Origin: Marsupella aquatica
Taxonomy: Eukaryota > Plantae > Marchantiophyta
Direction of reading: 5' to 3'
Length of the DNA stretch: 64,000 nucleotides
Assembly: GCA_973895155.1 (NCBI GenBank)
Contig: OZ316892.1
Span: 9,590,283 to 9,654,282, forward strand
The notes under the pieces: generated by a model
What the model saw: only the letters and a program-made list of their open reading frames with translations
What the model was told of the DNA's origin: nothing
Database searches by the model: none
Position numbers and translations under genes: made by a program
Shown here: in pieces, positions 1 to 36,833 of the stretch
How positions within the stretch are numbered: the first letter of the stretch is position 1
Layout of the letters: each line of letters begins with the position of its first letter

Positions 1-1944
1 CCTTTGGTCATTGGGAAAGCTTTTGAGATGGGTATGTCAGAAGGAGGTACAGGAGGATGAAACTGCTGCAATGGAGATATTTGGAGTAGAGGTTATTTGT
101 AAGTTGGAGAAGGCACTCCCTCCCTCTTTCTTTGATGGCCAGGTTCATTTTCTCATACATTTAGTGCATGAGGTTGCAATTGCAGGCCCAGTGCATTGTC
201 GATGGATGTATTGGGTTGAGCGTTATATGGGGGTGATGAAGTCGTACGTCTCTAATCGCGCTAGGGTGGAAGCTAGCATTGCAGAGCGTCATCTTGGAGC
301 AGAGAGTATGTTTTATTGTACAAACATAGTTGCCACACTAGATCCTAACGCTCCTAGGGGATGGATACCTGAGGCAGCGCGAGAGGCGGACTATGAGGAT
401 GATAGACTCACTGGGGCATCAGGAGAGCGTCTCTTGAGCTCAGCGGAGCGTTTGCAGCTCACAACATTTATGTTGTATAATTCACCAGAGGTTGTAGGGG
501 AGTGGACAACATTTTATGAGGAGGAGAAGAAAAATAGTCGGCGACCACGATTATTTCCCAAGTTTCACCCATACATGAAGTCAAAGATGCTAGAAGTGGA
601 TGCCTTGGTGGGTATTGGGGAGAGCATATCACACTTCCCAAAGGTGACTGATAAGCTTCATACCTTGATTCATGGTCCACTACTTATAGTCACGACTCGG
701 ACAGCCATGTGGTCCAAGGGGAGACATTTTCGTGTTGAACGACTTGATGAGAAGAGGGCAGCTACACAAGATTGTGGGGTGATGGGTTGGTTCACCCAGG
801 ATTCACAGAGTAGCACATCAGACAGGAATCCCATTCGGTCCACCGTCGCCCATTATGGAAAGATTGAGGAAATCCTTACCATAAAGTACCATGCACATAC
901 TACTTTGGAGGAAGTGGTATTAAAGTGCAAATGGTTCAAGATGAATCTTGTGGGCCACAACCGGACATGTGAAGATGATGCATGCGGTTTTACCCGGTTG
1001 AAGACAACCACAAATAGTGTCATCAGCTCAAACTGGAGGTCCTCAGATCCCTTTGCATTCCCCCATCACCTTGAACAATGTTTTTACCTACCCTATCCAG
1101 ATGACTCAGATTGGTCCATTGTCATGCCATACATTCCACGATCACGATCCATCGTCCAGGATAGACCTAACGTAGTTATAGTGGAAGATACTAACATTCC
1201 CTCCACTAGTTAGATATCTAGTACATCAAAGGCGGAGCTAACCCCTACCATCTTATTTGTGGCTATTTTATTGGCATTACATATTTATCGGCATTTCATG
1301 TGTTCTCACACTCTACCATTGCATAAACTATATTGCTACAAGTATCCAGGATCAAACCATGACCACAATACAATGTCCCATTGTCAATCCCATGGAATCT
1401 ACATCGCACAGGCATCGGTACTCGGCCGGAGAACTAAACCTCTTTCCGATATTGAAAGTGACGGGACACATGCGATTCAAAACCTATCGGACACATTTTT
1501 CCGTTCCAGAAACCATCGGACCCCTCGGCAAAAATGATGAAGGAGGGGTCCGATATGCTTACCTTTGGACAACTTCCGATACTGTAACTATCGCACGTAG
1601 GTTCCAAAGCAATGTCTTTCCCAATATTATGTCCGTTGGTTTAAATATCGGACAATGTCCGTTTGTTTTTCCAACGAGCCTCAGGTCCGAGTGTAACTGC
1701 ATCGGAAGCTAAAGCCTTACTTTTGTCGTCTTTTTGCGATGCTATTAATTTCGGACATTGTTCGATAGTTCTGGTATGGGATAGTTTTTGCGAAGCATTT
1801 TCCATCGGTACATTTATTTCCGATATATCATGAATCGGAAATTACGATGGTTTTAATATCGGAAGTTGTTCGATGCGTTCGGTTTCGGATGGCTAAAAGA
1901 AGCCGCGATTTGAGTATCGGAAAGAGACCAAAAATGTACTAGTG
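1..1944 (+). mobile_element. CACTA (En/Spm) DNA transposon #1, 3' portion (left end outside the window), inserted into copia pol
   Basis: Transposase C-terminus at 11..1213. Subterminal ATCGGA/TCCGAT motifs are dense at ~1480-1925. The element ends ...aaaaatgtactagtg at 1944 (reverse complement CACTAGTACA), followed by copia coding sequence. Confidence 0.9.
11..1213 (+). CDS. CACTA TnpD-type transposase C-terminal part (DUF4218 + DUF4216-like), 5'-truncated by the window edge
   Basis: Motifs CKLEKALPPSFFD, HLVHEV, GPVHCRWMYWVERYM, NRARVEASIAE, HYGKIEEI, LKCKWF, DPFAFP..EQCFYLPYP..DWSIV. Collinear with the transposase of element #2. Confidence 0.9.
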   Translation: MGKLLRWVCQKEVQEDETAAMEIFGVEVICKLEKALPPSFFDGQVHFLIHLVHEVAIAGPVHCRWMYWVERYMGVMKSYVSNRARVEASIAERHLGAESMFYCTNIVATLDPNAPRGWIPEAAREADYEDDRLTGASGERLLSSAERLQLTTFMLYNSPEVVGEWTTFYEEEKKNSRRPRLFPKFHPYMKSKMLEVDALVGIGESISHFPKVTDKLHTLIHGPLLIVTTRTAMWSKGRHFRVERLDEKRAATQDCGVMGWFTQDSQSSTSDRNPIRSTVAHYGKIEEILTIKYHAHTTLEEVVLKCKWFKMNLVGHNRTCEDDACGFTRLKTTTNSVISSNWRSSDPFAFPHHLEQCFYLPYPDDSDWSIVMPYIPRSRSIVQDRPNVVIVEDTNIPSTS

Positions 1945-4523
1945 GAGGCTTGTGCTTCAGAGCAGAAGCATGAGTAGAATGCAGCAATGCAGAGGGAGTT
2001 GCAATCTTTGAGTGACAACAAGACATGTGAGTTGGAGCTTCCAAGAGGTTAGCAAGTGGTGGACAGCAAGTGGATTTACAAGTTGAAGGACAGTCCTTCA
2101 ATCAGAGGGTGGAGATAAGATCTACAAGGCAAGGCTTGTTGCCAAGGGATTCACTCAGGAGAAAGGAGTGGATTACAATGAGGTCTTTTCACCAGTGGCT
2201 AAGTATTCCACAATTCGGATCTTGTATCAGCTTGTTGTGTTTTTTAATCTGGTGATGGATCAGATGGATGTTGTTACTGCTTTGCTCTATGGCAACTTGG
2301 AAGAGATGATCTTCATGAGACAGCCGCTAGGCTTTATGAAGAAAGGCCAAGAGAACTTAGTTTGCAGATTGCTCAAGTCCTTGTATGGATTGAAGTAGTC
2401 TCCCAGATAGTGAAACAAGCGGTTTGATGATTTCATGCTTGCTCAAGGTTTTACAAGGATGGTGTATGATCCTTGTGTGTATACAAAATCAGTCAAGAAT
2501 GATGTATTTGGTTTCATCATTCTGGTGATCTATGTGGATGACATGCTAATTGTGGCTAAAGATCAATCTAAGGTTGACAGTCTCAAGGCAAAACTGAGTG
2601 TTGAATTCAGGATGAAGGAACTTGGTAAGGCCAAGAGGATCTTAGGGATGGAGATTTTTAGGAACTCTGATACTGGACAGTTGTGCTTGAGTCAAGGTCA
2701 GTATGTAAGGAAAATACTTGCACGATTCAACATGGAGAACTATAAGCCAGTGAGTATTCCTTTAGCTTCACACTTCAAGTTATCATCGGCTTTCTCTCCT
2801 ACGGATGTTGTGGAGAAAGGTCTGATAGCTAAGATTCCTTATGAGAAGGCAATAGGCAGTCTGATGTATTTGATGACTTGTACTAGGCCTGACTTGGCCC
2901 TAGCGATGGGCAAGGTTAGCAGATTCATGTCAAATCCAAGGAAGGTACATTGGGAAGCTGTGAAGTGGATTCTCAGGTATCTCAAGGGTACACAGGACTA
3001 TGGATTACTATTTGATAACAAATCAGATACAACGTTAGTTGGCTATGTAGATTCTGACTATGGAGGCTGTCTGGATACAAGGAGGTCTACACCCTGGGCC
3101 CTTAGTGTTACTAATACAGGGAGGACGTGCGAACAACGCAAGGGTATTTTTAATGTAATGCAAACTAATTTTTATAACAGTTTTTAAAGTAGGCAACATC
3201 CCTCTATATACATTCACCACAATATTAGTAATAAGGCAAGAATCAAATACATGTCACATAAATCTTATGCAAGGGTACCCAAAATGCCAAGTACACGCGT
3301 CACTATATGGTTGACACACATGTCATCACTTCATTTGCACACGTGTCCATATAGTAAATCAGATATTTAATTATTATCATCTTAAGGCAAGTTTGGTTTC
3401 GTTGGTCCCCTTATGGTGGAACAAATGGGTTAAGGTAGACATGTTTACCCGCATGTTTAGGAGTTAAGTGGGGAGTTGAGTAAATTTTGGGCCAGGATCT
3501 TTGGGCCCAACTTGGTTGGGAAACTGGGATTGATGGGGATCCATGGATTAATCCCACATGGACGGACAAGATTACTTTTGAATTCCCTTGAATCAAACAG
3601 CCATGTATGAGGCCAGATGTGTTTGTGTATTGAGGGAGGGGTCTCGAGCGCTCAAACAATGTTTGTTATAGTTGGTTCAGACTTTGAAGTATTATTCTTG
3701 GATTATACATATATAGTACTAATGAAAACTAGAAGTTCAGAGGCACTTTTGCGAACACTAAGACAAAACTGCAGGTCTATGTGTAAACTATAGGAAGAAC
3801 TATAATTTTCTCTCGTCCTAATTTTGTTTATCTATATAAAATATGTACCTTGAACATCGAGCATAACATACAAGTCCCCTATGAAAGATAAAGTTTTAAC
3901 TATTTCAGTATGATATTTGTAATTCTAAAAATTCAAGGGTGTTTTCAATTCCTTGAAAAACTCTATTATAATTTATAAAAGGATAAAATTTAATATGAAA
4001 AGTTAATATTTTTACATTAACAAGGGGATTTTTTTTGTGAACAAAAATATTAAGAAGAGGTACACGGGGGGTATCTGTTCTCAGGGGGGTTCACTTGATA
4101 TAGTAAGAGTGAGGGCCCAGGGGGTCTACAACTGGGTTTGTTTTTACTCTTGGAGGAGGATGTATCAATTAGAAATCTACCTTGTAGAAGTGTATATCTC
4201 AGTCTACTACAGAAGCAAAATATGTTGCAGCAGCAAAAGCGGCAAAGGAAGCTATTTGGTTAGATAAGTTGATTGCGGAGATGGGTTTAGAGCATGGCAA
4301 AATGACTCTAAACTATGATAGTCAGAGTGCTCTTCACTTGGCTGCTGACCAGGTGATGGATAGCAGGGTGAAGCACATTGATATCAGGTACCATTTTATC
4401 AAACAAGCAGTGTCTGATAAAACTTTTGAGCTAGTCAAGATTGATGGAAAGCTCAATCCTGCTGATGCCTTTACCAAAGTGATTCCTTTGGAGAGTTTCT
4501 CAAGACACCGTGCTACTTTGTAG
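1945..4523 (+). pseudogene. Decayed Ty1/copia pol (reverse transcriptase + RNase H), interrupted at 3092-4122
   Basis: RT motifs DYNEVFSPVAK, QMDVVTA, LLKSLYGLK, YVDDML, GSLMYLMTCTRPDL. RNase H motifs GYVDSD, STTEA, KHIDIRYHF, NPADAFTK. Several in-frame stops (e.g. 2396, ~4168, ~4183). Confidence 0.93.
3092..4122. mobile_element. Non-autonomous TIR DNA element (1031 bp) with 8-bp TSD
   Basis: TSD ggtctaca at 3084-3091 and 4123-4130. Imperfect TIR ccctgggccctta.t.ttacta / tagtaagagtgagggcccaggg. Removing it plus one TSD copy restores the copia ...RRSTTGFVF frame. AT-rich interior with no recognisable coding sequence. Confidence 0.9.
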
Positions 4524-4725
4524 GTTTTGCAGTTGTAGTGCAAGTAGAGTTATTTAGCAATGTGTGACTATTTATATATGAATTACTCATTCCTATTTGG
4601 CTACGGCTTAGTTCTAGTTAACCCTTAGTTAACCCTTGTGGTTTTTAGTGGTTTGGTAATTGTCTAGAACTTCCCGCTGAGGATTCCATATGGTAGCATT
4701 TAGTCCAGTCCCCAAGACAAGAGTC

Positions 4726-5064
4726 AAGGGGGAGTTTTTTAGATATTGTTCTAGTCTTGTGACTCATGAGCTAATCACAGTTAGTCTAACTCGGTTTAGG
4801 ACTTAGCTAATGTTAGCGGTTGTGCGGTTGTGCGGTTGTGCATATAGCCAGGGCTGAAGCCAGACCCTGGTGGAACTTAGGCTCATGTTTACGGAGCTAG
4901 TTGAGAGATAGGGAGAGCTTGTGCTGTGGATGCTTGGTATGGCTGGACGGCCTAGAGTGTAGTAAAGCTCTTGTGTGTTCCCGTGGATGTAGCCTCATGT
5001 GGAGGTGAACCACGTATCTCTCTGTGTTGACTATTGTGCGTTGGATGATTCATGGGCTTGCCGT
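4726..5064 (+). repeat. Copia polypurine tract and 3' LTR (left part; continues at 14797-14823 after the CACTA #2 insertion)
   Basis: PPT aagggggag at 4726-4734, ~200 bp after the RNase H stop, followed by a mutated TGTT-like start. After CACTA #2 the sequence resumes and ends in ...caccaaca (14823), a plausible LTR CA terminus. Confidence 0.65.
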
Positions 5065-6025
5065 CACTACAACATAATTGACACTTTTGCGAAGGTATTT
5101 TTGTCGACGCTCTTGTATTTCCGATGGGCGTCGCTTTGCATAATTTGCGAATCAACCCGCATCGCAATTTGCGATTCTATCCCTATCGCAAATATAATAC
5201 TTGAAGCGCATTATATCGCTAATACGTTGCGAAGTAAGTGGTTTTGCAAGTTTTACCAAAACGCGCCGAATGGAAAGGCACCTTCTGAAGACGAGAAAAT
5301 CGCTCGCCAACTCCGAAACTAACTCATGTAAATATTTGCAAAGAAGGTTGGATTGAAAATGTTTTGCGATAGTAGTTGTTTGACAAGTTTAAGAATGTCG
5401 GAGGATGGAAGATTTGCGAAACGGTGAGAATATGAAATTTATGATTGATTTTGCATCACAAGTTTGCGAAGAGTATAGTATGGAAATATTGAGAAAAGAG
5501 AAGCTTCATAGAAATTGCGAGTCCGGTGAGAGTTTGTGAGCTTCGCAAATTGTTCACAAACTAAAAATTAAGATTATTGTGAGGTGAGACAATGAAGAGG
5601 GTGGATGGTCCAATATATGGATGGGGCGGGAGGGAAGAGGAAGGGAGGATGGAGGGAGGTACAATGAAGGATGGAAAAGGGAGGGAGTACAATGGAAGAG
5701 GAAGGAGGGAGGAGAAAGAGGAAGGGAGGAGGAGGGACAAACGTACCATGGAGGAGGGAAACACGAGGGTGAGAATGAAAATTATGGAATAAGTAGGAAA
5801 TAAAGTTATATTGAGCAACAGAGGTTAGATAGAAAGTTGCATGTAAAATTCACAAGTGATCACAATAAAACAATACAATACATATGTCATGAGTATAACT
5901 CATTCAAAAGTGAATGGCAAATATAAATATAGACAATACTTTTTTTTATATCACCAAACATGAACAAATCAAATATAACATGAACAAATGTCTAGGCTGG
6001 ACCCAAGTGCATATAAATATGTCCC

Positions 6026-9000
6026 TCACACTTGGTCCTCATCGGCCTCAAGGTCATCTAGGTCTGATACAATAACATTTGGCTTCTCAGAAACAATGGA
6101 ACGAGAACGTGGCACATAGGTGATGACAATTGACCACTCGGTGTCTAAGGGGTATGGAATGTAGAAACATTGCTCCAAGTGTGATGGGAAAGCAAATGGT
6201 TCTGACGTTTGCCAATGAGATGCTTGAACACTAGTGGCACTTGTCTTCAACCGTGTAAACCCACTCTCATCTTGAAGTACAGTGCAATTTTGACCAACAA
6301 GGTTCACTTTGAACCACTTGCACTTGAAGACATATTCCTCAAACTTTGAATGGTTGTCATATGATACCACCAAGATCTCCTCTATCTTCCCATAGTGTGG
6401 CACAACATCTCTAACAATGTTCCTGTCATGGCAGCTGCTTCTGGAGTCTTGAGAAAATTCCCCTTGAACTCCACAATCAAAAGTACGACCCCTCTTCTCA
6501 TCAAGGGAAGAAACCCTAAAATTAACAAAACCCACAAATTTTTATTACACAAAAGATACCATTAATGTAATAATCATCAAAATATGACACCCATCCCTAA
6601 ATAGCCAAAACCCACATGGCCTATGGCATAAATATAGAAGCCAACATTACAGTTATGGATGTCATTAATGATAATAGAAAGTTTTTAAACAATAGAAATA
6701 ACTAATCAAAATAAGGTCTACATGAATTAATAGAGGAAGAAAGGTTAGGTACTAGTGGACCTGAAGTGTCTCCCTTGTGTCCACATAGCCGTCTTGGATG
6801 TCACCACTCTCAAAGGGCCATGAACAATGGTCCGAACGTCATCTGTGATGGTAGGAAAGTGGGACACATCTCCTCCTTGTGTCACCATGTCATCCAACTC
6901 AAGCAACTTTTGCTTCATATACTCATGCATCTTAGGAAAAATTCTTGCTCTTTGACTTGTTCTCTTGGCATTCTCATAAAACTCTCTCCATTTCTCCATG
7001 ATATTACTATTACTCAACATAAATGTTGTCAACTATGACCACTCTGTTGATGTCAACATGCGTGTTTTTGTGGCACCTGTTAAACGGTCCTCCTCCTCTT
7101 CTCTTTCCTCCATCCAAGTACGTGGACAAGTAGGATCAATGGTGGCCAAGATGTTACTACAATAAAACATACTCTCTGCTGCCAAGTATCCTGTAGCTAT
7201 GCTTCCCTCCACCCGTGCACGGTTACGTACATAAGCCTTCAACACCGCCATGTAACGCTCAAGCCAATACATCCATCTACAATGCACTGGACCTGCAATG
7301 GCAACCTCCCGCACAAGATGCACAAGTAAATGAACCTGACAATCAAAGAAGGAAGGAGGAAGGGCTTTCTCCAACTTGCATACCACCTCAGCTGCCAATA
7401 CCTCCATCCTAGGGATCTCTTCTACATATATCTCTTTTGAGCATATTCATCTCAACAAACGACCCAATGACCAGATGGCATCTTGCACTTCTTCACTCCC
7501 TATACCTATAATTGCCACTGGCAATATATGCTGCAATAGGCGATGATAGTCATGTGTCTTCAGATATCGTGGCCACTTGTGATTGTCCTCCATCCCAAAA
7601 GCTTTTCGAAGGTTGGCACCATAGCCTGTAGGAAACCGCATCTCTCCTATACGGTTCTGAAATTCACGTCTTTGGCCAACACTCAACACCCAAGGAGTAG
7701 AAGGACGATTCTCCACACCTGCGATAGGATCAGTTGTCACCCAAACATCTGGATGCAGTTCCATCTCCTCGCATGCCTCCCTAAAATTAGTGTCCTTCTC
7801 CCCATAAAAATGCTTTATCAAAGCCTTCCCCACATTTCCCTCTATGTGCATGGGGTCTAAAAGATGGCGGATCTTCAACTCAGACCAATAGGGCAAAGTG
7901 GCTAGTATACTCCACCTGGTCAAACCTGTCCTATCAAAGGTGAAGGAATGATTTGGGTCTGCCACCCTATCAGCTAGTGACTTCCAATGTGCAAAACTTG
8001 TTGCATCAGGAATTTCACGCTCATCACTAAATGGCATGTCAAAGGAGGAGAATAGAAGTGGGTCAAACCTCATCTCATGCCCCATTGATGGGAAGAAACT
8101 TTGTATGCCCAATATAAACAATCTTTCTAATCCATGAACAATATGTGGCCATGTCCTCTAAGCTTGGGCCACAAGTAGAGCAAGCTTTGTACCCCTGAGT
8201 TTGCAATCCAGAGACAAAACCAAACCCTGCTTACATAGAAGAAATCAAACCATGCAAACTTTATGTTAGGGTTGTCACATGAGAAACAACAATAGGAACT
8301 ACACATTATTGAAGGGTTGCAAATGGCATGGAAGTCATATTACCAGGATAGTCATGCATTGTCCAACAAATGATCCCTCTTAATTGAAAGACACGTGGAA
8401 AACCTCCTATAATTTTCCTGCCATCATATGCCCACACTCCATTCCATAATTTTTGAAGTTCTCCAACCAATAGTGCCAAGTAAGTGTCAAAGTTCTTCAC
8501 CTTTTTTGGACCTGGGATAATCAAAGACAATAAAAGGAACCCCTTCTTTATGGATAGCCATGGTGGGAGGTTATAATTCATGACAACCACAGGCCAAACT
8601 GATGTAGGTTGCCCCTTTCCTCCAAGTGAATGAGGGCTAACTCCATCAGATGCCAATCCTAGCCTCACATGGCGAGGATCATGTGCAAAGTCTGGCCATG
8701 TTGCCTCAATATGTTTGTGAGCAGGGGAGTCAACTGGCAATCGCATGACACCAGACTCTGATCGATGAGTCTTATGCCATACCATCAACTCTGCCAAGTC
8801 AGAACACCGATACATGTGCAACAACCGAGGAATGATGGGAAACCAACGAACAGCCTTCCTTGGCACCTTCTTTGTTAGCATGTTGGGGTCATAGCGAGGC
8901 TCATCACATGTTGTACATTGTGTCATGTTTGCATTGGCCCCATGAAATAACATGCAATCATTCACACATGTATGAACAATATGATATTCCATGCCAATAG

Positions 9001-10847
9001 ATGAGAGAACACTCTTTGCCTCCTTCCAAGTTGCTGGCAACACATTCTCAGTGGGTAACATAAGGTCATGGCAAAGTGCAAACATATAAGATAACAAGGC
9101 ATTGCTTGCCTTGTGTTTGGCCTGTAGGTTCATCAACCCCAAGATGGCTGAAAGACGACTCAAACAAGCACCCTCATAGATAGGTGTTCGGGCATGTTCC
9201 TCTGCTTCTTCCCATTGGCGTTGTCCCTCAGGGGTATGTCTTGGGCCGGCGTGGATCATTGGGGGCACCTGCCCTTCATTGGGAAGGTCATCACCAGGGT
9301 TGTCGGCACCAAACCAATCAACCATGAAGTCATCCATGGCTCTATCCTGGTCATCAATTACTTGTTCATCCGTCCGAGGTACCTCTTCATCAGGGTTACT
9401 GCTTCCACTAGCACTTGATGAGGAGTGTGACTCTGATCCATGTCCTTCTTCTGGCATACCCATTTCTCGATATGTTGCTCTCAATCTCCGTGGTAACATA
9501 TTTGGAGAGGGTCGCACATTCTAAAAACAAAGCAAACAATTGAAAGTTATATTGCAAAGAGAACACACACAAAAATGGGCTAGGGGTGTGCAAAAATGAA
9601 ATAATATTGGTTGTGGTGCAAATACAAAATGTGGCCAAAGGCCATATGTAGTGTCCTTTGATATGCAACATACCACCTATGACCCTTAACTTAACCCTAA
9701 TCCCACATAGTGAGTAAATAACTCATCCCCTGAGTTAATGGTCCTCGTCGCTACAACTAGGCAATGGTCATGATGATATGTCTGGCCATAACGTGCTGGC
9801 GGAGGACCCTCAATGAAAACCCACTCACAATTTTGCCTATGCTTAGGGCGAGTCCCCACGGTACTGTTTATGAAACCAGCAATATTCCCAGTCCGTATGG
9901 GGTCCCCATCTATGACACGCTGCTCACTATACCTTCTAGTGTTTCCATCAAAAGTATCCATGTCCAATGCATAAGTCTTCCATTCAGGGTGTTGTGCAAG
10001 GATCATGTTCCAATGTCTTCTCTTGTAGATGGGTCCACCATAAGGAAACAAAGTAGGCCCCTCTCGGCCGCGTCCACCTCTACCACTCTCGGCGTCCACA
10101 ATGATGTCCTCACAGGCAAAAACTCCATAGCCATGTCTATCCCCAAGTGTGGAAGGTTTGATAACCCAACGTCTACCCCAAACCTCTACCTCCGCACCGT
10201 AGGAAAGCTGTTGTGGCAAACCAAGAGTCTCAGGATCCCAGTCCTTGATGATAGGGACACATCTGCCAGTGAACTCACAATCACCCCACCTACCCGTAAC
10301 CACTGCCTTGTACAAATCAGTATCCCCTAGGGCCCGCCTCTTGGAACGCTTTCTCCCTCTTGGGACAATAGCCTCAACCCCAACTTCCCTAGGACTGGTG
10401 GGCCTTGCCGCTAGACCCAAGGCTTTTGAGAATGCATTGCCTATAGCATCTAGAACACCTTGTGATGGGACATAGGGTGCTTGTGCCACAGGTCTAGGCC
10501 TATTGGATACCTATTCCACCAAAACCAAAACAAACAAAAGTAGGTGTGAAATTAAAAACCTTCAACCATTGAGTAATGGGAATAGGGTAGGAAAACTAAG
10601 GCATAACACTTATAATATGAGATGAAGAAGCCCCTGCCGTATGACATCCACAACGCCCATATCTCTCAATATGTTGGGCACATATGTAAGATTTTTGGGA
10701 AACCTGACCCACACATCTGGAACATTCACAAAGTTGACGGGGTGGACCGCGAGGAGGAGGTGCGGTCGTGTGATGTTGAGGTGGAGGTGGTGTATCTTCA
10801 TCAGAGGAGGACGAGTCTGTGGTGGAGATTTCAGAAGATGAAGACAT
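6026..10847 (-). pseudogene. CACTA TnpD transposase gene (Transposase_21 + DUF4218 + DUF4216), spliced and inactivated
   Basis: Exons approx. 10847-10614, 9520-8344, ~8226-6761, 6515-6026. Motifs HTCVNDCMLF, WFPIIPRL, PRHVRLGLASDG, SVWPV..NYNLPPW, GPK, WTMHDYPG, LDPMHIEGNV, LKTHDYH. Lesions: frameshift ~8080, TGA at 7447, TAG at 7033, exon-1 donor reads ATAAGT. Confidence 0.92.
9686..10510 (-). CDS. SET-domain (lysine methyltransferase-like) exon inside the CACTA element
   Basis: Uninterrupted frame with SET signature motifs in order: VIKPS..G.HGYGVFACEDI, LFPYGGPIY, YALD, IDG...GNIAGFINS...QNC, LVVATRTINSGDELFTHY. A phase-0 acceptor (…ggaatag|GTA at 10510) is in frame with upstream exon 10847-10614. 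Confidence 0.85.
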   Translation of the reverse strand, partial: VSNRPRPVAQAPYVPSQGVLDAIGNAFSKALGLAARPTSPREVGVEAIVPRGRKRSKRRALGDTDLYKAVVTGRWGDCEFTGRCVPIIKDWDPETLGLPQQLSYGAEVEVWGRRWVIKPSTLGDRHGYGVFACEDIIVDAESGRGGRGREGPTLFPYGGPIYKRRHWNMILAQHPEWKTYALDMDTFDGNTRRYSEQRVIDGDPIRTGNIAGFINSTVGTRPKHRQNCEWVFIEGPPPARYGQTYHHDHCLVVATRTINSGDELFTHYVGLGLS

Positions 10848-11509
10848 ATCCCCTGTAACAAGATATAATTAAAATGGGCATGTTATGACCAAAACATACC
10901 ACAAAATGATATAAATCAAAGTTCCCAAATAATGATGACAAGAAACCCAAACCAAAATGACCATAGCAATAAAAAAGGTACCTTTATGAGACCCGGGCTC
11001 AGCAGTGCCAATAGGTCTTGTGGCTCTAAGATAATTAATGAACCCAATCTGAAAGTATGAGGGAAAAGCTGCAACCATTCCATGTACAGATATGTAAGCA
11101 CAATAATCTGGACCAGACAAGAACAAAAAACCCTATATACATGTCCCCTTTATACATAGTGGCAACCAAAAGTGTTAAGTACATGAAAGGAACACTTGAG
11201 CCGATCATGCAATGTTTACCTTTCAAATGCCCGGGCTCTCACAATGCATATGCATTAGTATCAAATCATCAAAAAGTGCCGCACCCTGCAAGCTATCATA
11301 TAGTCCCCTCCTTTGTTAGCAAAACCCATGCCAATCCCTTTTTGATTCATAAACCCAATGAACCTCTCTTAAACCCAAAAGGCTGCAATATAAATCTCAT
11401 GAAACCTTGCTTTGTCTTATCCAAACCTTCAACCCCAAACCGCATCCTACCTATTAAACCTAAATCTGACTTACACACAAACCCAAACCTTTCTTCAACC
11501 TTAGAGACC

Positions 11510-11640
11510 TTTCTATTTAAAAACCCCAAACCCTAAAACCCTAAACCCAAACCTTACTTATTTCTTGTAAACCAAATCCCACACCTTTATTATTTCTTCT
11601 AAACTAATGTAAACCCAAACCTTAGCCTAAACCAACACCA
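11510..11640. promoter_or_regulatory. Telo-box-like (AAACCCTA) degenerate repeats in the region between the divergent genes of CACTA #2
   Basis: aaaccccaaaccctaaaaccctaaacccaaacc and further aaaccc variants. A regulatory role is inferred. Confidence 0.4.
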
Positions 11641-12151
11641 TACATAACCCATTAACCTGAAATCTGCCTAACCCTTCAAACCCGCCTTCAACTATTATCT
11701 AACACCCAAAACATGGCCAAAAAACATTCCAAATATGAGTATAGAGGGGTCCACTTCACCTTTGAAAAAAACCCTTTCAAATGAAACCAACATTCCCCCC
11801 AGGACGAGTTGCCAATGTCTTGCGAAGCCGCTTCCTTCGCAAATACCATCACAAATTAGAATTGAGTTTTGCGAAGCTGCTGCTTTCGCACGACCTTCAG
11901 AAAAATAGAGCCCGAGAGCATTTCTGCGAGAGAGCGAAGGTGTTGCGAAGCCTTTCACGTCGCAATGGTTTCGCAAATTTGAGAAACTACATGCGAAACT
12001 AGAAGGATCGCAACTTGCGAAACGGGTTGCTTCGCAAGTCTTTCCCGCTTGTACTTTTGCACTTGGCCGCGGCGTACTCAGCGGCATTTGACAAATTTCA
12101 AGCGTAGGGAGGGAGAAGGGAGCTTGCGCGCGCTCGGGGGGTGGCTTAGCT

Positions 12152-14117
12152 ATGGATTCCAGTGGAGCAAATGGAGGTGATGGGGCAGGGGTGAGTGACA
12201 GTGGCAATGGGAATGAAGGCAATGGGGAGCAGGAGAGGAATCGATGGACCGATTTGATGGCTGAGCACCTCAATGCAGCACAGTTGAGCCACTTAGATTT
12301 GACTACACCAGCAGGGATTGCTTCTTTGAGTGCGATCTTAGGGCAAGCCTTGCAAACGGGAGTAGATGCAGGGAACATTGCAAGGGAGGAGGAGCAAAGG
12401 AGTGCAGCTCAACAGAAGGCAAGAGAGAAGAAGCGTAAGAAGGAGGAGAGGGCCAAGGCAGGAGTAGTCTCACCTGCTGCCCTAGAAAAGAAGAGGAGGA
12501 GAGAGGAACGAGATGAGATAAGTGCACAGCGGGAGGAGCAGCGAAAGAAGGAGGAAGAGAGGAAGAAGCTGCCTATGATTGCCTTGATCGAAGGCATTCC
12601 TACTGAACTGGCCTACACCGGGGCAAAGAGCACTATCAGGCTTATGGTGCACTCCAATTTTGCACGAGGAGTTGAGTGGGGGAAACTCAGCAAGGCAGAC
12701 CAGAAGAAAGTAATGAGTCAAATCAAAGATTCATTTCGAAATGGAGCAAAGATTGATGAACAGTGGCTTGCAGATAGAATCTCCAATTCAATGTCTCAAG
12801 CACGGTACCATGATAGGAAGAAGGTAAGGGCCTACCTGGCAAACTTGGAGGAGTACAGAAACGTGAGGAGGCCACTGCAATTCACTGAGGACGTGTGGAA
12901 TGCCTTTTACAAAGTGGAGGTGCAGATGAGAGCTGCCAGGAACCTTCTCTTCTAGAAGGAAATGGAAGCCAAGGCACAGAAGGCCGGGAAGTCCGACCGA
13001 GACCTCAAGGCAATGGCTGAGAAGGTGTCTCACATGCAGCACATTGTGGATGAAGTGGGGGCACCACCCCAAAAATTCATCCTTGCAGCTGAGCGAGTTA
13101 GCAAACGGCCCAAGACCACGCACAAGATGGGCCAAGGTGGACTTCCCGGCCTCAAAGCACACTTTGTGAGTGGGCCCTCTCCTCCCCTGCTTCTGTTTCC
13201 TTGCTTTCAATTGGTATCCAAACCTGCAATGCCCCCCTGCATACCTCTTGTTTCTTTCTTACGGCCTGCCTTGTACTTTAGGTCACCCTGACACATTGCG
13301 TGCCTTAGAGATTTCTCGGAATTTTTTAAAAACAGAGTTTGCGAAGCTTTTGCGATGCCGGTTGCTTTGCAAATGTTTCGCAAAGTCTATCATGGCATTT
13401 TTTAAAGTTGTAGATGCGAAGCTATTGCAAACTAACCCGCTTCGCAACTACTTCGCAAGCAGCTAATTTATTTGAATTTGCGAAGTGGGGAGTTTCGCAA
13501 GTGTGTATTATGTTTAAAAAATACCGCTAAGGGTTATTGAGCCCAGTTTTGTGTTCTAGGGTGCACCCTATTAGCACCTCCATGCATTTTTCTTGGGTTT
13601 ATAGCATATTAACCTCGATCGATTTTGGTTTTGGAATGTTTGGTTGTGGTAGTATAAGAGGTACCGCAGGAAGATAACAGCAAAAGAGATGGAGATAGGA
13701 GCTGCGCATGGAGCCAAACATCTCTTTGACTTGGTTGACGCAGAGTTGGCGACTGTAAGTGCATGTATCCCCTTCAGTTTTTCCCACCCAATCCACTTAT
13801 CTTTTCATTCCGTAAACCTAAACCAATTTGGCGTTGTGCTGTGCAAACAGGATGATGAGGATGCCAGTGATACCAGCAGCACCGATGAGAACAATGAGGG
13901 GACCACGACAAAGGGGCCCAAGGTAGGAGGGAGTAGTGGATCTGGACCAGTAGGAGGAGTTTCCCAGCAGGAGGGGGAGGAAGAGGATGAGGACGAGGAC
14001 GAGGAGGAACCAGATGTGGAGGAGCAGCCAGCACCACCTCCTGTGCCACGTCCGGATCGTCGCAAGAGGGACAAGGGGAAGAGGCCGGCGACAAGGAGTA
14101 GGAGGACCCCATTCTAG
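12152..14117 (+). pseudogene. Second CACTA ORF (TnpA/Transposase_24-like), divergent from the transposase, one premature stop
   Basis: Exons 12152-13165, 13653-13754, 13851-14117 with canonical phase-0 GT..AG joins. TAG at 12953 (probable CAG). Basic coiled-coil region, motif THKMGQGGLPGLKAHF, acidic and basic tail. Family assignment rests on resemblance only. Confidence 0.65.
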
Positions 14118-16211
14118 AGCTTGGTGGTGTAGTGCCTATGGATGCCCATTTACTTAGTGTAGTATATAGTTTTGATATCATGGGTAGTCTTATAGGGACC
14201 TAGCTTGTCATATGACACCCATCTAGGGTTTAGGAAACCCTAATTTTTGTGTACCTATCAATTTTCTATAAAGCAATTTTGATTCAGTCTGGTCTCCGTG
14301 TTGGACAACAAGACCCCAACCATAATTCAAAACTCTAAATCTAAACCCTAGCCTCAAGACATCTTGCGAAACCTATGCGAACAACCCAAATTGCATATTT
14401 ACCATACTGAAGGTATTGCAAACATTATGCAAACCACATAAGTTCACAAAAATGCGAAGCGATCTTCATGGCATAACTACCATTCACTTAATATCGCAAA
14501 CATATTACCAAACTCCTGGGATTGCAAATATTGAACTGCTTGATTATTATCGCAAGCCTCTCGCGACGCCCACAGAGTCGCTTAAATGTGAGTCCTTTGC
14601 GATTCTATTAGTGTCGCAAGTTGCGAAGGCGTTGCGAAGGTCTTGCGAAAGACCGGATGCGAACCTTTGGGCTTCGCAGTTTGCGATTCTATTGCGATGT
14701 GCGATACTTCGCAAAGGTGAGTTTTGTTTTTTGATTTCCTTTGTTGTTTGCGATGCTTTCAAGTTCGCAAAAGGTGTAGGAAGTGTTGTAGTGCGTTACG
14801 AATGTCGTCTATGCTCACCAACAACTCCCGGCCCCATACAACTCCGTTCCTCCCTCAAATGAATTCCCCACCCTTCCGTGTTGGCAGTTCTTCTCTGATC
14901 TCCCAACATTATATTGATGACGCCCTACCCCAATATCAGTGCCATCTACCAATGGTGTTCCACAAGCGTAAATTTTGATCCTTCACTTACTCTGAATTTT
15001 TTGAAATGGGTGCTCAGATGGACCAAGTAGATGAACATCTCTCCCCTCTTGGACTCTACACTTACACTTGGTAGTCTACAAACCACAGGGAACAGGAAAA
15101 GAACACTCAAAACAATTGTTCAGTAGTCTGTACAAGTTGAAGAATGTTGGCAATACAATGTTGAAAGAAATGGCGACTTTATTAATTAATGAGTAGTCCA
15201 GGGCTTCTTCACTATATAGCATATAGCATCCTAGAACATGCTTGATATTTGTCTTGTAGTGATCTGTAAGTAGGATAAAATATGAGAGTAGACCTATCTT
15301 ACTACTATAATACCCTATTGGGCCAAAAGTGGTGGGTCATCTGTTTACAACATCACTTTTGTAGGGAACCATGACAATTGGATTTATAAGCTCTTTGATC
15401 CCAGCCTTTCATTTGTCAAAACTTAGTCATGCCCTGGTAATAAATCATTGTGGGCTTGCTCCCAAAGTGAGAGCTGTATCTTGAGTTTTGAGACGTTATT
15501 ATTACCCATGATGCCTGGAGCTAATACAAGTAGAGAAAAAGCTTCATAGTGCCCCATCCAAATCTGGATGGTGCATTCTCTCTATAAGAGCACACCAAGT
15601 GATAAATCACAAAGGGCATTAAGTAGAGCCATGCTCTAGGTAAGAGAGAAGGAAAAGTTGCATGTCCAGGGCATTCACAACTCAAGAAACCTACCTAGGT
15701 GAGAGATAAGACAAGGTTGCATGTCCAGGAGTTTCACAAGTCAAGAAACCTACCTTATCTAAAACTAAACAAATCTATCTTAAGTAAAAGTAGTGTCAAG
15801 CCAAAGCATGTGAGGTCCTGTCATTATGGTCCTGCCATGTGTGGTCCGGGAAAAGCACCTTGGGCTGTTACCCTGGACACAGCCCTGAAGGAGAGACTTA
15901 TGACACTCTACCGACACCAATGAACATGCACGACTAGAACCCTAAACTCTATAAAGTGCAACATGCAATTGACATGGCCCAATGCACGTGCATTTTAGTG
16001 TATCAGACTATCTGTGCAATATTTAGTCAGTGACGGTGAGAGATTATAAGAGTACACTATTGTAGTTTGTTTGGTCCTGTCTAGTAAATTGGTCTGTTTC
16101 TTTAAGAAAGGTCATCTTTACTATAGTTTGATTTTACTCTGGACGTGGATGGACTAAACAAATTTTCCACACGGGACAAAATGAGAATTCATATGAGAGA
16201 CAGGTTCTATC

Positions 16212-20746: not shown

Positions 20747-23700
20747 ATGGGATGCGTAGGATCCACTCTGAAACGCGTTGACGGTGAGTGAGCTCTCTCC
20801 TCGAACCGGGCTAACCCTTGATCCATTCCCCCGCACCATCTTTGCCTTTCGGTACCTCTTTCTTCATGAATTAATTGTCTTGGGGAGGTTCGCCTGCTGC
20901 TGCCCCTTTCTATGGCCAACAAGTGCTGCTGCGACGTAGGTCTTGTGGATCGTTCTTTCTTTCCTTATAATAAACGAGAAGGAATTGTGTAATCAACCTC
21001 GTTTTGAAAATTCTATTACCGCATTTGGTCCGTCCAATTCACTGAGGACCTCAGTGAGTGTCCTCAGTGAATTGATTTTGCACGGTGAAGATGATGAAAG
21101 ATGGTTGCAATCTGCGGATGATGATTGCAACTGTGGACACTCTCAAGGGCATACGGGCCGGCTGGCGGAGTGAGTACGGTGTTATCATGATCGGGTAGAT
21201 TTGACGTCAACATGTTGGCGGTTTTTCTGCCCGTTAAGAACCCGTTTAGGTGGTTAAGGTTCTGGGCAGGCAATCCGGTCGCTTTTGTGGAAATGACTGC
21301 TGTTTGAACTGCTGCCAAGGTCATTGGGAGCCATGGGGATTGTTTGGCTCGCGAAATCTCAGTAGAGTTCTTTCTTTATCTACTCCTGTCCTGTGGAGAG
21401 TAGGGACGACGGACGCAATGTGGTGATGCAGTTGGGGATGATCGATGAGTTCTTCTTCTCACCTCAAGCAGCGTTGTTTGTTCGGCAGTATGCTGCTCGA
21501 TCAAGCTCCTGGGTGCATTGAGACATGTTTGTTTCCCAAATGAACGCCATATTGTTAATGGCGAATCCAATCGGCCAGCTTCAGAAGTTTGGCATGGGAG
21601 GGGATGGTGGAAGGCAATGGAGGGCAGCTTCGAATGCCCTTTGTTTCTGATGCTACGGTCTGGAATGCCTTCAATGTAGTCATGAAAATTGAAGCCAAAA
21701 ATTGTTAGTCTATGTCAGCAAAGCGGCTTCTAGTGGGTTATGTCTTGATTGGTCTGAAAATCGGGTTTACACCCTCAACATCCAGAACATGTGAATGCAA
21801 CTGAAGTGACCTGATGGTGATACTTGATGTAGCATCTGCCGTAGCCTTTCAGCTATAAAAGCATCGAGACTTTGTTTTGATCCTATGGATGAATGAGCTC
21901 TCTGTGCTCAATTGAAGAGGCTTGCAACCGAATGACTGACGTGTTCAAGCATTTTCTGGACCTGGTTCTGTGTGGGTTTGAGGAACTGCATGTCTGCTAA
22001 TTGAAACTGCAAGGAATCATAGTGTGGCTACTAGTTTAAGTCGGATGAGATAAACTGCTCGGTTGAGTAGTTGAATTTTTCTAGGATCTTACGCTGATAC
22101 TGAATTTTATTGGTGCACGTTGGTTGCTGCTTTCTACGTCCCGATCTACAGGGCTGTTCACATCCCACGAAACCTTCCGAACACAAGTACACTCATGTAA
22201 GTATACAGTGTGGAGTTTTTTGCCTTCAATTGGAGGGAGGCATCTCTGCACGGTATGTAATACTGAGGAACTAAGATGGATTGCCCTGGTAATGGAATGG
22301 CATTCTCATTCGTACGGTAGCGAAGGTAGCACTTGGCATACCAGTTTTGCTGGGTAATCTGCAAGCTAGTCTGGTGTCGATCAATTCATCATCAGCTGCA
22401 ATTTCGTAGAAACTGGGATGCCAAAATTGTGGTGATTAAAATTCACCAATAACTACAAGTCCCAAAATAGAGAACTGCCCCGAAGATCGTTATGGGCATT
22501 TCTTCATTATCAAGAACTTTAGTTGTGTCGTGGCTTTAGTTAGAGACTAAGCGTCCTTCCACATGTTGGTATCAGGGAATCAAAAGAAGATTAAGAGGCC
22601 AAAGCCGTGGAAGCATTCAGAAGATATCACTCGAGCACAGTTGAAACAGATGCGAGATGAATTCTGGGACACAGCGCCACATTATGGGGGCCAGAAAGGT
22701 TTGTTTTCAGGACCTTCAATATTTCGTGTGAGAAAGTCATCCTTTGTCACGTTGATATTGCTTCGGATTACTAGTGGCAAATGCAAAGACAACCTGTGGT
22801 GTGGTAATTGTTATCTTTGCGGAAGTTCTAGGGTTGTCAAAGTTTCCGGCGGACGTTTCCTTCGGTTGTTTACTTTGGAGCATCGAAGTTTAGTTTCTTT
22901 GAAGGGAAGTGATTTTCCGTCGGGTTTGGACAGCTGTATCATTGCTCTCTGTAATTCAACTGAATCCATACGAACTTAGATCGAGATAAATGAATAGATT
23001 CCTTAAAGGTCTTGGCTAAGGCAGGAAAAGGAACTTTGTACTGCAAGTTGAGTTTGCTGCTCACTAGTATGCATTTGGTTTTGATACAGAAATATGGGAT
23101 GCTCTGCGAGCAGCGGCTGAAGCTGATACCAATCTTGCACAGCTCATTGTGGAAAGCGCTGGTGTCATTGTAACAGCAGAGGATTTATCCACTTGTTATG
23201 ATGAAAGAGGTACTTGAACGGTCGAGTACCAAAAATCTCTAGAATCTGTCCAGGGCATTTTGCCGTTTGCTGGGAACTTGCTATCTATGATGCGATTGGG
23301 CAAGAAGCATGTAGCTAGAATACTGCAAAATAATTGGAGTTATGGCTTGGTTATTCTATCCTATCCCGACTGAAACTTCTCCTCCCACACCAGAGTAGAG
23401 CCCCACTTCCCTTGTCAGTAGAAATATTTGATGATTGATGCATCATTATAGCAAAACATTTCAGTTCTATGCCAGGTGGCCCCACTAGGTATCTGTAGCT
23501 TTGCCACATCAAAAAGCCGATCAGTTCTGTACACTATTCCACAGTCATCATCCTTTCATGTTGAGCATTAATCTGCTCTATATCCTTTTGTATCTTGTAA
23601 CGAGAAGTGTTGGCTTGCTTTCTCATTTGAAGTTATAACTTATCGATATCATAATTGGGATGTACCTAACTTTTTTCTCTTTGAACAGGTGCCAAATACG

Positions 23701-26842: not shown

Positions 26843-27774
26843 TAACATTATGCTCTTCCCTCAGGTACTGTGCAATGGGAGAATGCGCGACTGTGCAAAA
26901 CTGCAGTCCACAAAATAATGAACTACAGTACAGTCCTCAGTCCATCTTTGAACACGAGCGATTTCGCGCTGAAATCCTCGTTTGATGAAATCCCGCGCTC
27001 GCACATTTTGGGAACATACCAAAGTCCGATTCACAGAATTCGCTCAAGGAAAGGTTCTTTCTCGATTGACACGGCGGCGCACAGAAATGGGATAAATGGA
27101 GAGCTTCCGCACTGCGCATCACCTCCATCGCAAGAGCTGTGCATAACGCTCAACTTGAAACTTGACCCAGTTTGTTTTCCGCTCACTTCCTCCTCAATTT
27201 CAAAGCCACATTCGAGTCAGGGCGGGCGAAATCAATTCGGCCGGGTGTGGCCTAGATTGAAATGTTGTTAGTGTTGCTCTTCTCTTCGCCAGTTCAGAAA
27301 GATTTCATTCGATCGACAGCAGAAAGATTTCAAGATTGAGACGCCTGTGGAAGAATTGGGACATGTAGGAGGGCAATGGCTTGTGGGATTGAGGTGTTTG
27401 GAGAAACTGTAAATGGTGAGCCTTTAGGGCAGTGGCGTCACGTCAAGAGTCTTCTGCATTGGTGTGGAGTGAGCAGCTCAGTTCCGAATTCTGATTAGTA
27501 CTGTACTGTGCAGGACGTCGCAGACTATGAGATTGAGGGGCGGTGGATTGCAGAGGCTGTTTTATCGACGGGAGCGGGAGTACCTTTCAATGTAGGGGCA
27601 GGGAGTTGGAAACCTGCGAAGCAAAACAATAAATGAGATTTAGGGGGAAAACTTGGATAGGTGAAATCCGACGACCGTTGGGGAAGTACCTTCCAATGTA
27701 GGAAAGGGGTTGGAAACCAGCGCAGCAACAAGAGATGAGATTTTGAGGTGGAAGAAGTGGCAGAGGTGAATCCG

Positions 27775-29564
27775 ATGGCGTCGACCGCAGGATCGGCTCC
27801 CATAGCGACAGGATGTTACAAATGTGGTAGAACGGGTCATTGGGGAAAGGATTGTCCCTTGAAACCAGGTGGGACACCAGCCAGTGGGGGTGGGGGTGCG
27901 GGTGGAGCATCAGGTGGATTGAGTGGGGCATCCGGTGGAAGGTTTTCCAATTCAGGCAGATTTAATGGAGAAAATTCGTGGAAAGGGAATTCTTTTCAGG
28001 GTAACGCCAGTCAGGGGAACAAGAGTGTACCGAAGGAGCCTGTAAAAAAGGACCCCAGGAAGAGGCCAAAGTTGACAGCTGACTTGTTGCTTTCGGAAAA
28101 GGGATTGGGATATGTGCTCGAGAAGATGCCCGAGATGGTCACCATCAAAGCTCGTGAGGTGAGCGAGAAGCTCTTGACTCATAGTTTTCGAGGTGCCAGG
28201 ACTGATAACTGAAGAACTTACCTCTCCTGTGCAGAAATTTAATAGACGTGGAGTTGGGATCCTCACCATCTCCCCTGTTTTTTCGTGTGTCAATAATCTG
28301 TCATCTTAATGACATGGCAGGAGACAGTGGTCCGAGACTTGAAGAGTTTGCTTGAGGGCTACATGCACTGGCATTCCCTTCTGCTGCCGTATTTCAGTTT
28401 CGACCAGTTTGTGGAGAAGCTGGAGAGTGTGGGAGCCACTAAACGTGTGCGAGTAAGTGCGCAAACATCTGTTCGGACACTTCATCCAAGTTGTCTTGCC
28501 TATGGATACAATAATTAAGAGTCTAGATTGTAACAGTTCTCGATGATAATTTCGAAATAATTTGGTTATGTAGTTACAGTACGTAGTAGTTCTATCTGAT
28601 GAGCTCCTGGGGATGAAATCATTGCATTGAAGGTTTTTCAGCTTAGTGTTCCATTGTGTTTCATGTGCTCAGGTCTGCCACCGGGAGCTGCGAGATAAGA
28701 TTGTTTATGGTCAAGGATCGACAGGCGATAAGGACGTAGAAGTTGAAGCCAATGAAGGATCTTCTCCACGAGATACCCTTCCGAAGGACACCCCAGGTTG
28801 AGCTTTAGAATAATAGAATTGCCAAAGTTTTTCTACTTGCTGTTTTTCTCCATGAAGGTTTTGGTAGACTTTTTCAGGCAGCGAATTGCTGAGATATATT
28901 CCCCTCAACCAAATCCAGAAGCGCATCGAGCAAAGTAATTTCCCCAGAGTTCAATTTTTCATAGACTGTTTTGTTGTGGTCTATGTCTTTCCATTTTTGG
29001 TTTAAAGAACTTTACCAATATGAATTCGCTGTCTTTTGCAGCCGGTCCTGGGAGTGAGGTGTCCCACGGCCCTGCTGATGACATCTTCACAAATGAGGAG
29101 CCCGACTTGCCAGTGAATGAGGAAGATTTTGAAGACTTTTTCAGGCAGGGTACTGTTGAGGTAATTTCCGCTCAACCAAAACCCAGAACCACCTAGAGCA
29201 AAGAAATTTTCCCACAATGCTTCATTTTCATTGACTCCCTCCTTTCCTACGAAGTCAGTGACTCCATGTGCTGCACTTGCTGTCCACGCTTACTGAATCA
29301 TCTGGTCCCCATGCCGGTTCTCATTGGCAGACATCGGACTCTCATCCGTCCTCGACAATGGGAGGTGGTAGCGCTGCACCCGAACCCCAAAGCAATGGAT
29401 CCCCCGTGAGGAAGTTTCCCTCTTTGGACGATGAGGGTTCAACTATACCGTCAGAGGCCGCCACCAGCATCACCATCAGCGAATCAGCAGCAGTTCGAAT
29501 GGAGGCAAATCGTCTGCAAGCACTAGAGCGTGCCAGAGCTCGTCAGGCTAACGTTCACCTATAG
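27775..29564 (+). CDS. Zinc-knuckle (CCHC) Swi3/TIPIN/Csm3 replication fork protection protein
   Basis: Exons 27775-28158, 28321-28452, 28673-28796, 29042-29160, 29331-29564. CYKCGRTGHWGKDC knuckle. Swi3 domain KRPKLTADLLLSEKGLGYV...DLKSLLEGYMHWHSLLLPYFSFDQFVEKLE. Terminal RMEANRLQALERA motif. Confidence 0.9.
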
Positions 29565-36240: not shown

Positions 36241-36833
36241 CTTATGCTTATGGTCGTGATTCACTCTATCACAGTTCAGGCTTAAGAACTGATTTGGTTG
36301 TTGGTATTTTTCATGTTCAGGATTTTAATTCTCCCTCGAGCCTCCTTCTCGAGATTTCATTGTAAGTTGAGGTAATTTTGGTTTGCGTAGCTACGAACGC
36401 CAGCGGTTATTGTAGGAGAACAAGAGGCTCGATGTGCGACTGATCATTATTCTGAACGTCTCCCGCTCAAATATCTGTAGAATGCTCGTTGAAGCCATAA
36501 TCGATCGAAGGCTCAGACATGCCAGGTTTACCCGAAGTACTAACATACTTCTTAGCTTCCTGCAGTTTTCTGTGTATTGACGTTGCGGTTGAAGGCTCAT
36601 CAAAATGTCGCCAAAACTATCCCGAGGTTTGTTGCCCATTTTCTTGCATTTGTTGTTGTTTTCACTCGTGGTAAGCCGCTTCTTTGTCGCCATTTGTCTC
36701 CATAAGATCGTCTTCTGCCACTAAGCTGTACAGCCGGTCAAGGCTTCGTTTCGGCTCACTGAACGATTTTCTTACGTTGAAACCAGACTTGGACAAGGAT
36801 CAAGGACCATCATTCAGTCTCGGAATCTCGGTA

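Follow-up and report, generated by a model that had tools for sequence, protein, structure and literature searches.

A broken copy of a bryophyte CACTA transposon family with a SET exon, a putative chromatin-marking lysine methyltransferase that may share its first coding exon with the transposase

One CACTA-type DNA transposon occupies positions 5065 to 14793 of the 64-kb stretch of DNA that was analysed as a whole (the window), and it represents the only SET-bearing copy found there (n = 1; Table 1). The terminus CACTACAACA is present at 5065 on the plus strand and, inverted, at 14793 on the minus strand, and CGT flanks each end; the borders read CGT-CACTACAACA ... TGTTGTAGTG-CGT, that is, CACTA termini with a 3-base target duplication. 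An earlier note on this DNA had claimed a complete CACTA element with terminal inverted repeats (TIRs) and a CGT duplication, and the inverted termini with CGT on both sides bear this out. Membership in the CACTA superfamily is further documented by a TnpD transposase with the Pfam domains Transposase_21, DUF4218 and DUF4216 (present, although broken, in the window copy) and by subterminal TTGCGA/TCGCAA repeats that reach 22 to 26 per kb at both ends versus 0.16 to 0.6 per kb outside of the element. The 10-base terminus CACTACAACA was also reached in five sister loci, with four different flanks. Both the window element and three sister elements carry clusters of the TTGCGA/TCGCAA motif at either end, in the stretch that separates the divergent genes and within the divergent gene itself, in its 3' portion. 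Their positions in the window are 5065-5560, 11701-12100, 13291-13520 and 14301-14793, and the same pattern is seen in two families (sister loci L007, L009 and L028).

Table 1. Features of the SET-bearing CACTA element (window positions) and the observations that support each assignment.
Feature	Position	Strand	Observation
CGT target-site duplication (5062-5064) and left TIR from 5065	5062-5093	+	Same 10-base terminus in sister loci
Left subterminal region	5065-5560		TTGCGA/TCGCAA, 11 copies, 22 per kb versus 0.16 per kb in the right flank
Transposase (TnpD-type) body, several exons: Transposase_21, DUF4218, DUF4216	6026-9520	-	Pfam
Spacer of 165 bases, SET stop to transposase acceptor	9521-9685	-	Length and AG acceptor kept in sister loci, sequence not
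SET exon, 274 codons	9686-10510	-	Basic linker (about 1-65) poorly conserved; conserved core 66-268
Intron, 103 bases	10511-10613	-	Donor ATAAGT in the window copy, GT in sister loci
First coding exon (exon 1), 78 codons	10614-10847	-	Ser-rich start, then CxCxxC-x-HxxxYG, predicted to bind zinc
Two short non-coding conserved segments (11256-11217 and 11134-10993), likely 5'-UTR exons	10993-11256	-	Matches in L002 and L038; cover pattern of run X6
Intergenic region of the divergent genes, likely a shared promoter	11701-12100		9 TTGCGA/TCGCAA motifs
Second, divergent gene, no Pfam family	12152-14117	+	In-frame stop at 12953-12955 in the window copy
Right subterminal region (13 motifs), right TIR to 14793, CGT 14794-14796	14301-14796	-	Motif counts, termini

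The element resides in a Copia-type retroelement (RVT_2; positions 1945-5064 and 14794-14822), probably about 30 bases before the apparent end of its 3' LTR. This retroelement carries a further insert at about 3090-4150 and is host to a second CACTA insertion, the 3' part of another family (1-1944, plus strand; 57-61% protein identity to pieces of the sister locus L012), which has its own subterminal repeats and ends with TAGTG at 1944. Elsewhere in the window, an intact-looking frame of 529 codons (36675-38264, plus strand) weakly resembles tyrosine recombinases (Phage_integrase, E 0.007, below cut-off) and is possibly Crypton-like. Pieces of host genes are found at 22551-22979 (ubiquitin-binding domain), 27739-28212 (zinc knuckle with a weak Swi3 match) and 52658-56241 (TFIIB-related protein).

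The window copy of the SET-bearing element is dead and can make neither the SET protein nor the transposase. The donor site of its first coding exon reads ATT-ATAAGT, and the suspicion voiced at the outset that this copy can probably not splice is well founded; sister loci keep a GT donor. All 17 contigs that cover positions 10613-10614 (2, 3, 8 and 4 per run, from four public runs inspected over the region 9000-11400) possess a canonical donor. Since this holds for the contigs of each of the four runs, donor loss is a private lesion of the window copy and no argument against the family. The SET exon had been described as an uninterrupted reading frame of about 275 codons; it is indeed open over 274 codons without a stop, but its tail is out of frame. 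Sister contigs from three of the four runs contain two extra bases at 9705 (the fourth run has no cover there), and the full-length relatives in our first alignment (A1) all end with ELF(T/S/A)xY-x-W, while the window protein ends with ELFTHYVGLGLS. Hence, a 2-base deletion near 9705 has shifted the frame of the last SET residues, and the terminal x-W of the family was lost. The transposase of the window copy contains two in-frame stops and one frameshift in comparison with the sister locus L012, and the divergent gene is likewise interrupted by an in-frame stop (Table 1).

Exon 1 (read leftward from 10847 to 10614) is in phase 0 and encodes the motif CECSRC..HIERYG. The idea that this motif resembles the transposase-associated N-terminus stands only in part: a Cys/His motif is present, but the likeness to the corresponding Pfam domain (PF13963) is weak, with no Pfam match for exon 1 of the window and one match among the 12 proteins scanned (E 0.031, below cut-off). 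The two acceptor sites downstream of exon 1, GAATAG-GTA at 10510 for the SET exon and TTTTAG-AAT at 9520 for the transposase (whose 9520-8306 frame matches Transposase_21 with an E value of 6e-38), are both in phase 0 and in frame with exon 1, as the earlier note had stated, and this phase is kept in the sister loci. There, the exon 1 donor reads GT in each of 18 motif-located cases, the transposase acceptor reads AG in 22/23, and the SET acceptor reads TAATAG in 26 of 32 motif matches (TAATAA in three, other sequences in three). The spacer behind the SET stop measures about 150-160 bases in the sister loci versus 165 in the window. Introns and spacers of different families are unlike in sequence (16/40 bases before the acceptor), while their lengths and phases are kept.

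From these splice signals, it is probable that one leftward transcript gives rise to two alternative products, exon 1 joined to the SET exon or exon 1 joined to TnpD. The first joint is present at the predicted junction in gene models (themselves predictions) of at least five Sphagnum species and of Calypogeia. A straight splice from exon 1 to the transposase was found in none of the 17 proteins recovered with a Sphagnum-type exon 1 query, and a protein search with the exon 1 sequence of the window yielded nothing. The junctions 10614-10510 and 10614-9520 are not among the joints listed for the four runs, whose contigs are of uncertain kind, and this result is neutral either way. That zero count among 17 proteins would suit an arrangement of tandem genes, in which exon 1 belongs solely to the SET gene and the transposase starts from its own methionine through a separate splice or promoter. 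The transposase exon has a conserved methionine as its eighth codon, from which TnpD could be translated after a 5'-UTR splice; the feeble likeness of exon 1 to PF13963 points the same way, and Arabidopsis EN/SPM families are described, in the accessible text of the source, as alternating between spliced and split-gene layouts (PMC13547354). We nevertheless consider tandem genes unlikely. Between the transposase acceptor and this first methionine lie seven codons that retain N-(V/I)-R-P-S with silent changes, and such protein-like conservation behind a phase-0 acceptor in three families is consistent with translation from an upstream coding exon, to the extent that seven codons can tell. Furthermore, the spacer comprises just about 160 bases, and the 9520 transposase exon is devoid of the Cys/His domain with which plant CACTA transposases normally begin. 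A shared exon 1 therefore remains our preferred reading. Two side observations concern this gene layout: a Logan contig protein of 423 amino acids (P0125) holds an exon 1-like Cys/His motif and SET in one frame and might stem from a spliced transcript or from an intron-less member, and an intron of the Sphagnum-like transposase (L012, 2627-2771) is apparently absent at window positions 7624-7629, where the frame runs on.

A search with the SET frame of the window retrieved 42 proteins, among them representatives from Calypogeia fissa (71% identity), several Sphagnum species (55-82%) and Riccia sorocarpa (41%); clusters of Sphagnum SET proteins comprise up to 360 members. Exhaustive searching yielded 95 representatives with identities down to about 30%. 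In a tree calculated from 59 of the 72 aligned SET cores (13 short rows were dropped), the window sequence groups with the Calypogeia protein P0001 (support 99/89), which makes a bryophyte, and more narrowly a liverwort, the probable host. The Pfam families detected in the 67 relatives scanned were SET and Transposase_21 only. Three Riccia gene models (P0158, P0194, P0196) fuse SET pieces to Transposase_21; the SET part of P0194 is near-identical to those of the Riccia proteins P0118/P0120, and P0196 displays the order exon 1 motif, SET, transposase. The exon 1 motif also precedes SET in distant Riccia models (35-45% identity). Judged by these gene models, the exon 1-SET-transposase layout is common to lineages whose SET proteins are 35-45% identical.

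Scanning of metagenome contigs uncovered 38 sister loci, which are not independent of each other since they mostly represent one Sphagnum-like family, together with a third family (L002); the sister locus L012 is 97% identical to P0004 of Sphagnum jensenii. A transposase follows the SET exon in 23 of the 24 testable loci, that is, those that include the 3' end of SET in full and extend at least 230 bases further, and the 24th (L002) ends at the acceptor. Fourteen loci were left out of this count as too short or cut: L024, L030, L033 and L034, in which unrelated DNA cuts SET in mid-gene and the rest of the locus holds no transposase, and 10 other short loci. Exon 1 is found upstream of SET in 17/18 loci (L020 gave no match) and the divergent gene in 10/11 (L023 gave no match). 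Whether the SET exon always sits at the same position of the CACTA element was a check proposed in the earlier note, and these counts answer it positively. Of the 14 loci with a complete SET exon, 4 (L001, L002, L006 and L009) keep its frame open.

We estimated selection as medians of Nei-Gojobori (NG86) values between the window and the sister loci, pairs that share one branch and are hence not independent. For SET codons 105-268, dN was 0.13 and dS 0.74, corresponding to a dN/dS of 0.175 (25 loci); the ratio was 0.24 for codons 66-268 (22 loci) and 0.45 for the linker, codons 12-65 (24 loci). The exon 1 motif (codons 32-78) gave about 0.18 (17 loci), the transposase 0.12 (6 loci), DUF4218 0.12 (4 loci), DUF4216 0.18 (4 loci) and the divergent gene about 0.21 (8 loci). 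The SET value between families thus lies close to that of the transposase. Among the sister copies themselves, dN/dS of SET amounts to about 0.8. A working gene of a mobile element would leave just such ratios, with selection acting between families and copies decaying after insertion.

The ratio of about 0.8 and the broken state of most copies would also be seen if a fragment of a host SET gene had been captured in Pack-CACTA fashion and were now decaying neutrally. This explanation is very improbable and already contradicted: the element carries its own transposase, and between families the exon is selected at a transposase-like dN/dS of 0.175 at a dS of about 0.74. It is located at the same position in mosses and in two liverwort genera, its splice sites are kept while the introns cannot be aligned, and none of the 67 relatives scanned contains another host SET-family domain. 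With a predicted SET fold (see below) and a conserved, multi-copy exon, none of the sequence-level outcomes that the earlier note had named as speaking against its proposal was obtained. We regard the SET exon as almost certainly an integral, selected gene of this CACTA family.

The translation of 10510-9686 matches the Pfam SET profile (PF00856) above cut-off (E 7.7e-6; 26.7 bits versus 22.4), and the modelled fold is that of a SET domain as well, so that the profile check advocated initially had a positive outcome. The structure of the core of L012, predicted with a 72-sequence alignment, reached a pLDDT of 92.5 and a pTM of 0.87; an earlier fold of the window sequence on the 32-row alignment A1 (pLDDT 51.5) was discarded. 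Foldseek matches of the L012 model listed for the PDB are all SET domains (best E 2.6e-7). A wide structural search (VIA) with the same model also returned SET domains only among its top matches, with Set1 as the best (Z 12.4, rmsd 2.6, 124 aligned residues), SET8, EZH2, SET7/9 and LegAS4 within about one Z unit of it, and PR-domain proteins at Z 11.2. Viral SET proteins match the model too, and the nearest feature neighbours in the Atlas include SET proteins of Nucleocytoviricota. At the sequence level, searches of solved structures with the single sequence and with A1 found no SET protein; the deeper profile A2 (72 relatives) alone succeeded, with LegAS4 of Legionella as the best match (E 1.3e-6). 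The SET fold, predicted from the model of a sister copy, is a firm call. Membership in one of the SET classes known from host plants (SUVH, ASHH, E(z), ATX and ATXR5/6) was considered and rejected, as class-specific flanking domains are missing from the 67 relatives scanned; ATXR5 matched the family profile with an E value of 0.036 only. Scans that reach only close relatives confirmed none of 12 pattern matches in viral contigs and none of 41 in prokaryote genomes.

In alignment A2, the catalytic positions are near-invariant across relatives of 30-40% identity: the glycine of the GxG motif (G62) is present in 65/66, the asparagine of motif III (N145) in 65/72 and the terminal tyrosine in 56/60 sequences. 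The F/Y switch position is filled by a small residue (T, A, V or C), and a small residue at this position permits multiple methylation. The usual histidine of the NH(S) motif is absent, with serine at this position in 69 of the 72 aligned relatives, and there is no post-SET segment, the protein ending 2-3 residues past the terminal tyrosine. This histidine and the post-SET segment are features of canonical eukaryotic SET enzymes, and catalytically dead SET/PR domains likewise lack both. Family-specific residues outside of the classic SET motifs are strongly conserved. These deviations, and the PR-domain proteins among the structural matches, would be understandable if the exon, integral and selected as it is, encoded a catalytically dead or weak binding module that serves as a reader, as a decoy for host silencing enzymes or as a dimer partner of the transposase. 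We consider this unlikely in view of the near-invariant GxG, asparagine and terminal tyrosine residues. Moreover, LegAS4 shares the signature GN-x-x-x-YIN-x-S (it reads YINFS), also has no histidine there, and yet is described as an active H3K14 trimethylase in the accessible text of PMC10653858. Hence, it is rather likely, on the strength of the model and these residues, that the product of the SET exon is catalytically active. No histone site is indicated because structural matches with different targets (H3K4, H4K20, H3K27, H3K14) tie within 1-2 Z units.

The divergent gene has no Pfam family and no Atlas match above 0.77, and it is under selection in the sister loci that retain it. From its motif likeness, it is a likely candidate for the TnpA-like accessory gene of the element, and its product for the binder of the TTGCGA clusters. 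Motifs of this kind are what TnpA-like proteins bind, according to the accessible text of a recent preprint (bioRxiv 10.64898/2026.08.24.746577).

We propose the following working for the family. The leftward transcript would start with short non-coding exons that are conserved in sister families, proceed through exon 1 into the SET exon and be read up to the stop codon there; alternatively, the SET exon would be skipped and exon 1 joined to TnpD, which would give the two products one Cys/His domain in common. The SET protein would be the likely writer that is brought to the TTGCGA sites at the element ends and the promoter. More speculatively, its targeting may be afforded by the shared Cys/His exon or by the divergent TnpA-like protein together with the TTGCGA clusters. 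That its substrate is a histone and that its effect helps the element to stay or become active has, for the whole of this chain, about an even chance in our view. Alternatively, an active methyltransferase might have another target among proteins such as the transposase, the TnpA-like protein and host factors, or might set a repressive mark that quiets the element. None of the structural matches singles out a histone site, and SET proteins are reported to methylate both histone and non-histone lysines (PMC10653858). Most of the top structural matches are histone enzymes, however, and TnpA and VANC are described as activating and hypomethylating their own elements (bioRxiv 10.64898/2026.08.24.746577), so that we rate another target as rather improbable. 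About even odds also apply to the overall proposal, namely that the window element is a defective member of a bryophyte CACTA family in whose active members a selected SET exon likely shares exon 1 with the transposase and encodes a predicted lysine methyltransferase that likely marks chromatin at the element. More tentative, and in our estimate somewhat doubtful, is the wider view that an old bryophyte CACTA clade encodes, by exon choice, its own histone lysine methyltransferase from a distinct minimal SET family, that the zinc domain shared with the transposase brings it to element ends and promoter, and that its mark opposes host silencing (catalytic anti-silencing); transfer of such elements between liverworts and peat mosses may have occurred as well.

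SETMAR, the nearest precedent named in the earlier note, is a domesticated single-copy host fusion of SET and transposase. It has SET and transposase in one locus in common with our element; here, the family is multi-copy and mobile, and a stop codon separates SET from the transposase. Closer precedents are SET genes on DNA transposons, including those of the EnSpm group. Red-algal Plavaka elements (EnSpm/CACTA superfamily) carry a SET (PF00856) accessory gene, PAG2, for which a role as chromatin modifier has been proposed in the accessible text of bioRxiv 10.1101/2025.02.11.637652. Both systems have SET as a stable accessory gene of an EnSpm-superfamily DNA transposon and a proposed role in chromatin, whereas PAG2 is described as a gene of its own in which SET and an adenine methylase are fused, part of a cassette of three genes in elements of 17-19 kb. 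In contrast, the SET exon stands alone here, within the first intron of a 9.7-kb CACTA element of the plant type (Transposase_21). SET genes are also described on HarbingerS and MuDR elements of Phytophthora (cited in PMC12730594) and on Helitrons (bioRxiv 10.1101/2025.02.11.637652). These, too, are DNA transposons that encode SET-domain proteins, but they belong to other superfamilies and hosts, and the accessible text of these sources does not describe SET as a transposase-nested exon.

With regard to gene layout, maize En/Spm and Arabidopsis EN/SPM3 are reported to obtain both TnpA and TnpD by alternative splicing of a single unit (PMC13547354; bioRxiv 10.64898/2026.08.24.746577), and TnpA to hypomethylate and activate its own family (bioRxiv 10.64898/2026.08.24.746577). 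A CACTA transposase and an accessory regulator would be produced by alternative splicing in either case, with splice signals as the basis in ours. TnpA of En/Spm, as far as described there, is a DNA-binding protein without a catalytic domain, whereas the alternative product here is predicted to adopt a SET fold, and the separate divergent gene likely encodes the TnpA equivalent. Among minimal SET enzymes, RomA/LegAS4 of Legionella, SET8, SET7/9 and giant-virus SET proteins resemble the model in fold (Z 11-12), but they are only 16-26% identical; an N-terminal extension of about 40 residues is specific to our family, which has no ankyrin or post-SET part. These comparisons gave no evidence for descent from LegAS4, SET8, SET7/9 or giant-virus SET proteins. 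No description of a land-plant CACTA element with a SET exon was found in the literature covered (outside of Repbase Reports, subscription journals and preprint supplements), and the accessible parts of PMC8616336 and bioRxiv 10.1101/2024.09.22.614159 contain nothing on a SET-bearing CACTA element. A transposon-borne SET domain has precedent, while three features are new as far as these searches reach: the occurrence in a land plant, the distinct minimal SET family and the nesting of the exon in the transposase gene.

The anti-silencing proteins of plant transposons described to date (TnpA, VANC) are DNA-binding factors whose chromatin mechanism is unresolved. A transposon-encoded enzyme would be directly testable: the domain comprises 200 residues and was modelled with confidence, intact copies are available in the records, and mosses and liverworts are tractable hosts. 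It would also serve as a test case for the SET genes that HarbingerS, MuDR, Helitron and Plavaka elements carry. Hundreds of models for a 'SET domain-containing protein' in Sphagnum and liverwort annotations are transposon exons, and they would inflate counts of host histone methyltransferases.

Two further observations bear on the history of the family. Across genes, dS values of about 0.7-1.4 separate the family of the window element, whose nearest named relative is a liverwort, from the Sphagnum-like family. Such values are low for the split between mosses and liverworts, and horizontal transfer is possible. Furthermore, P0185 and P0192 (Calypogeia), P0177 and P0184 are distant members of the SET family with long branches and other N-termini; they could be parts of other elements or domesticated copies.
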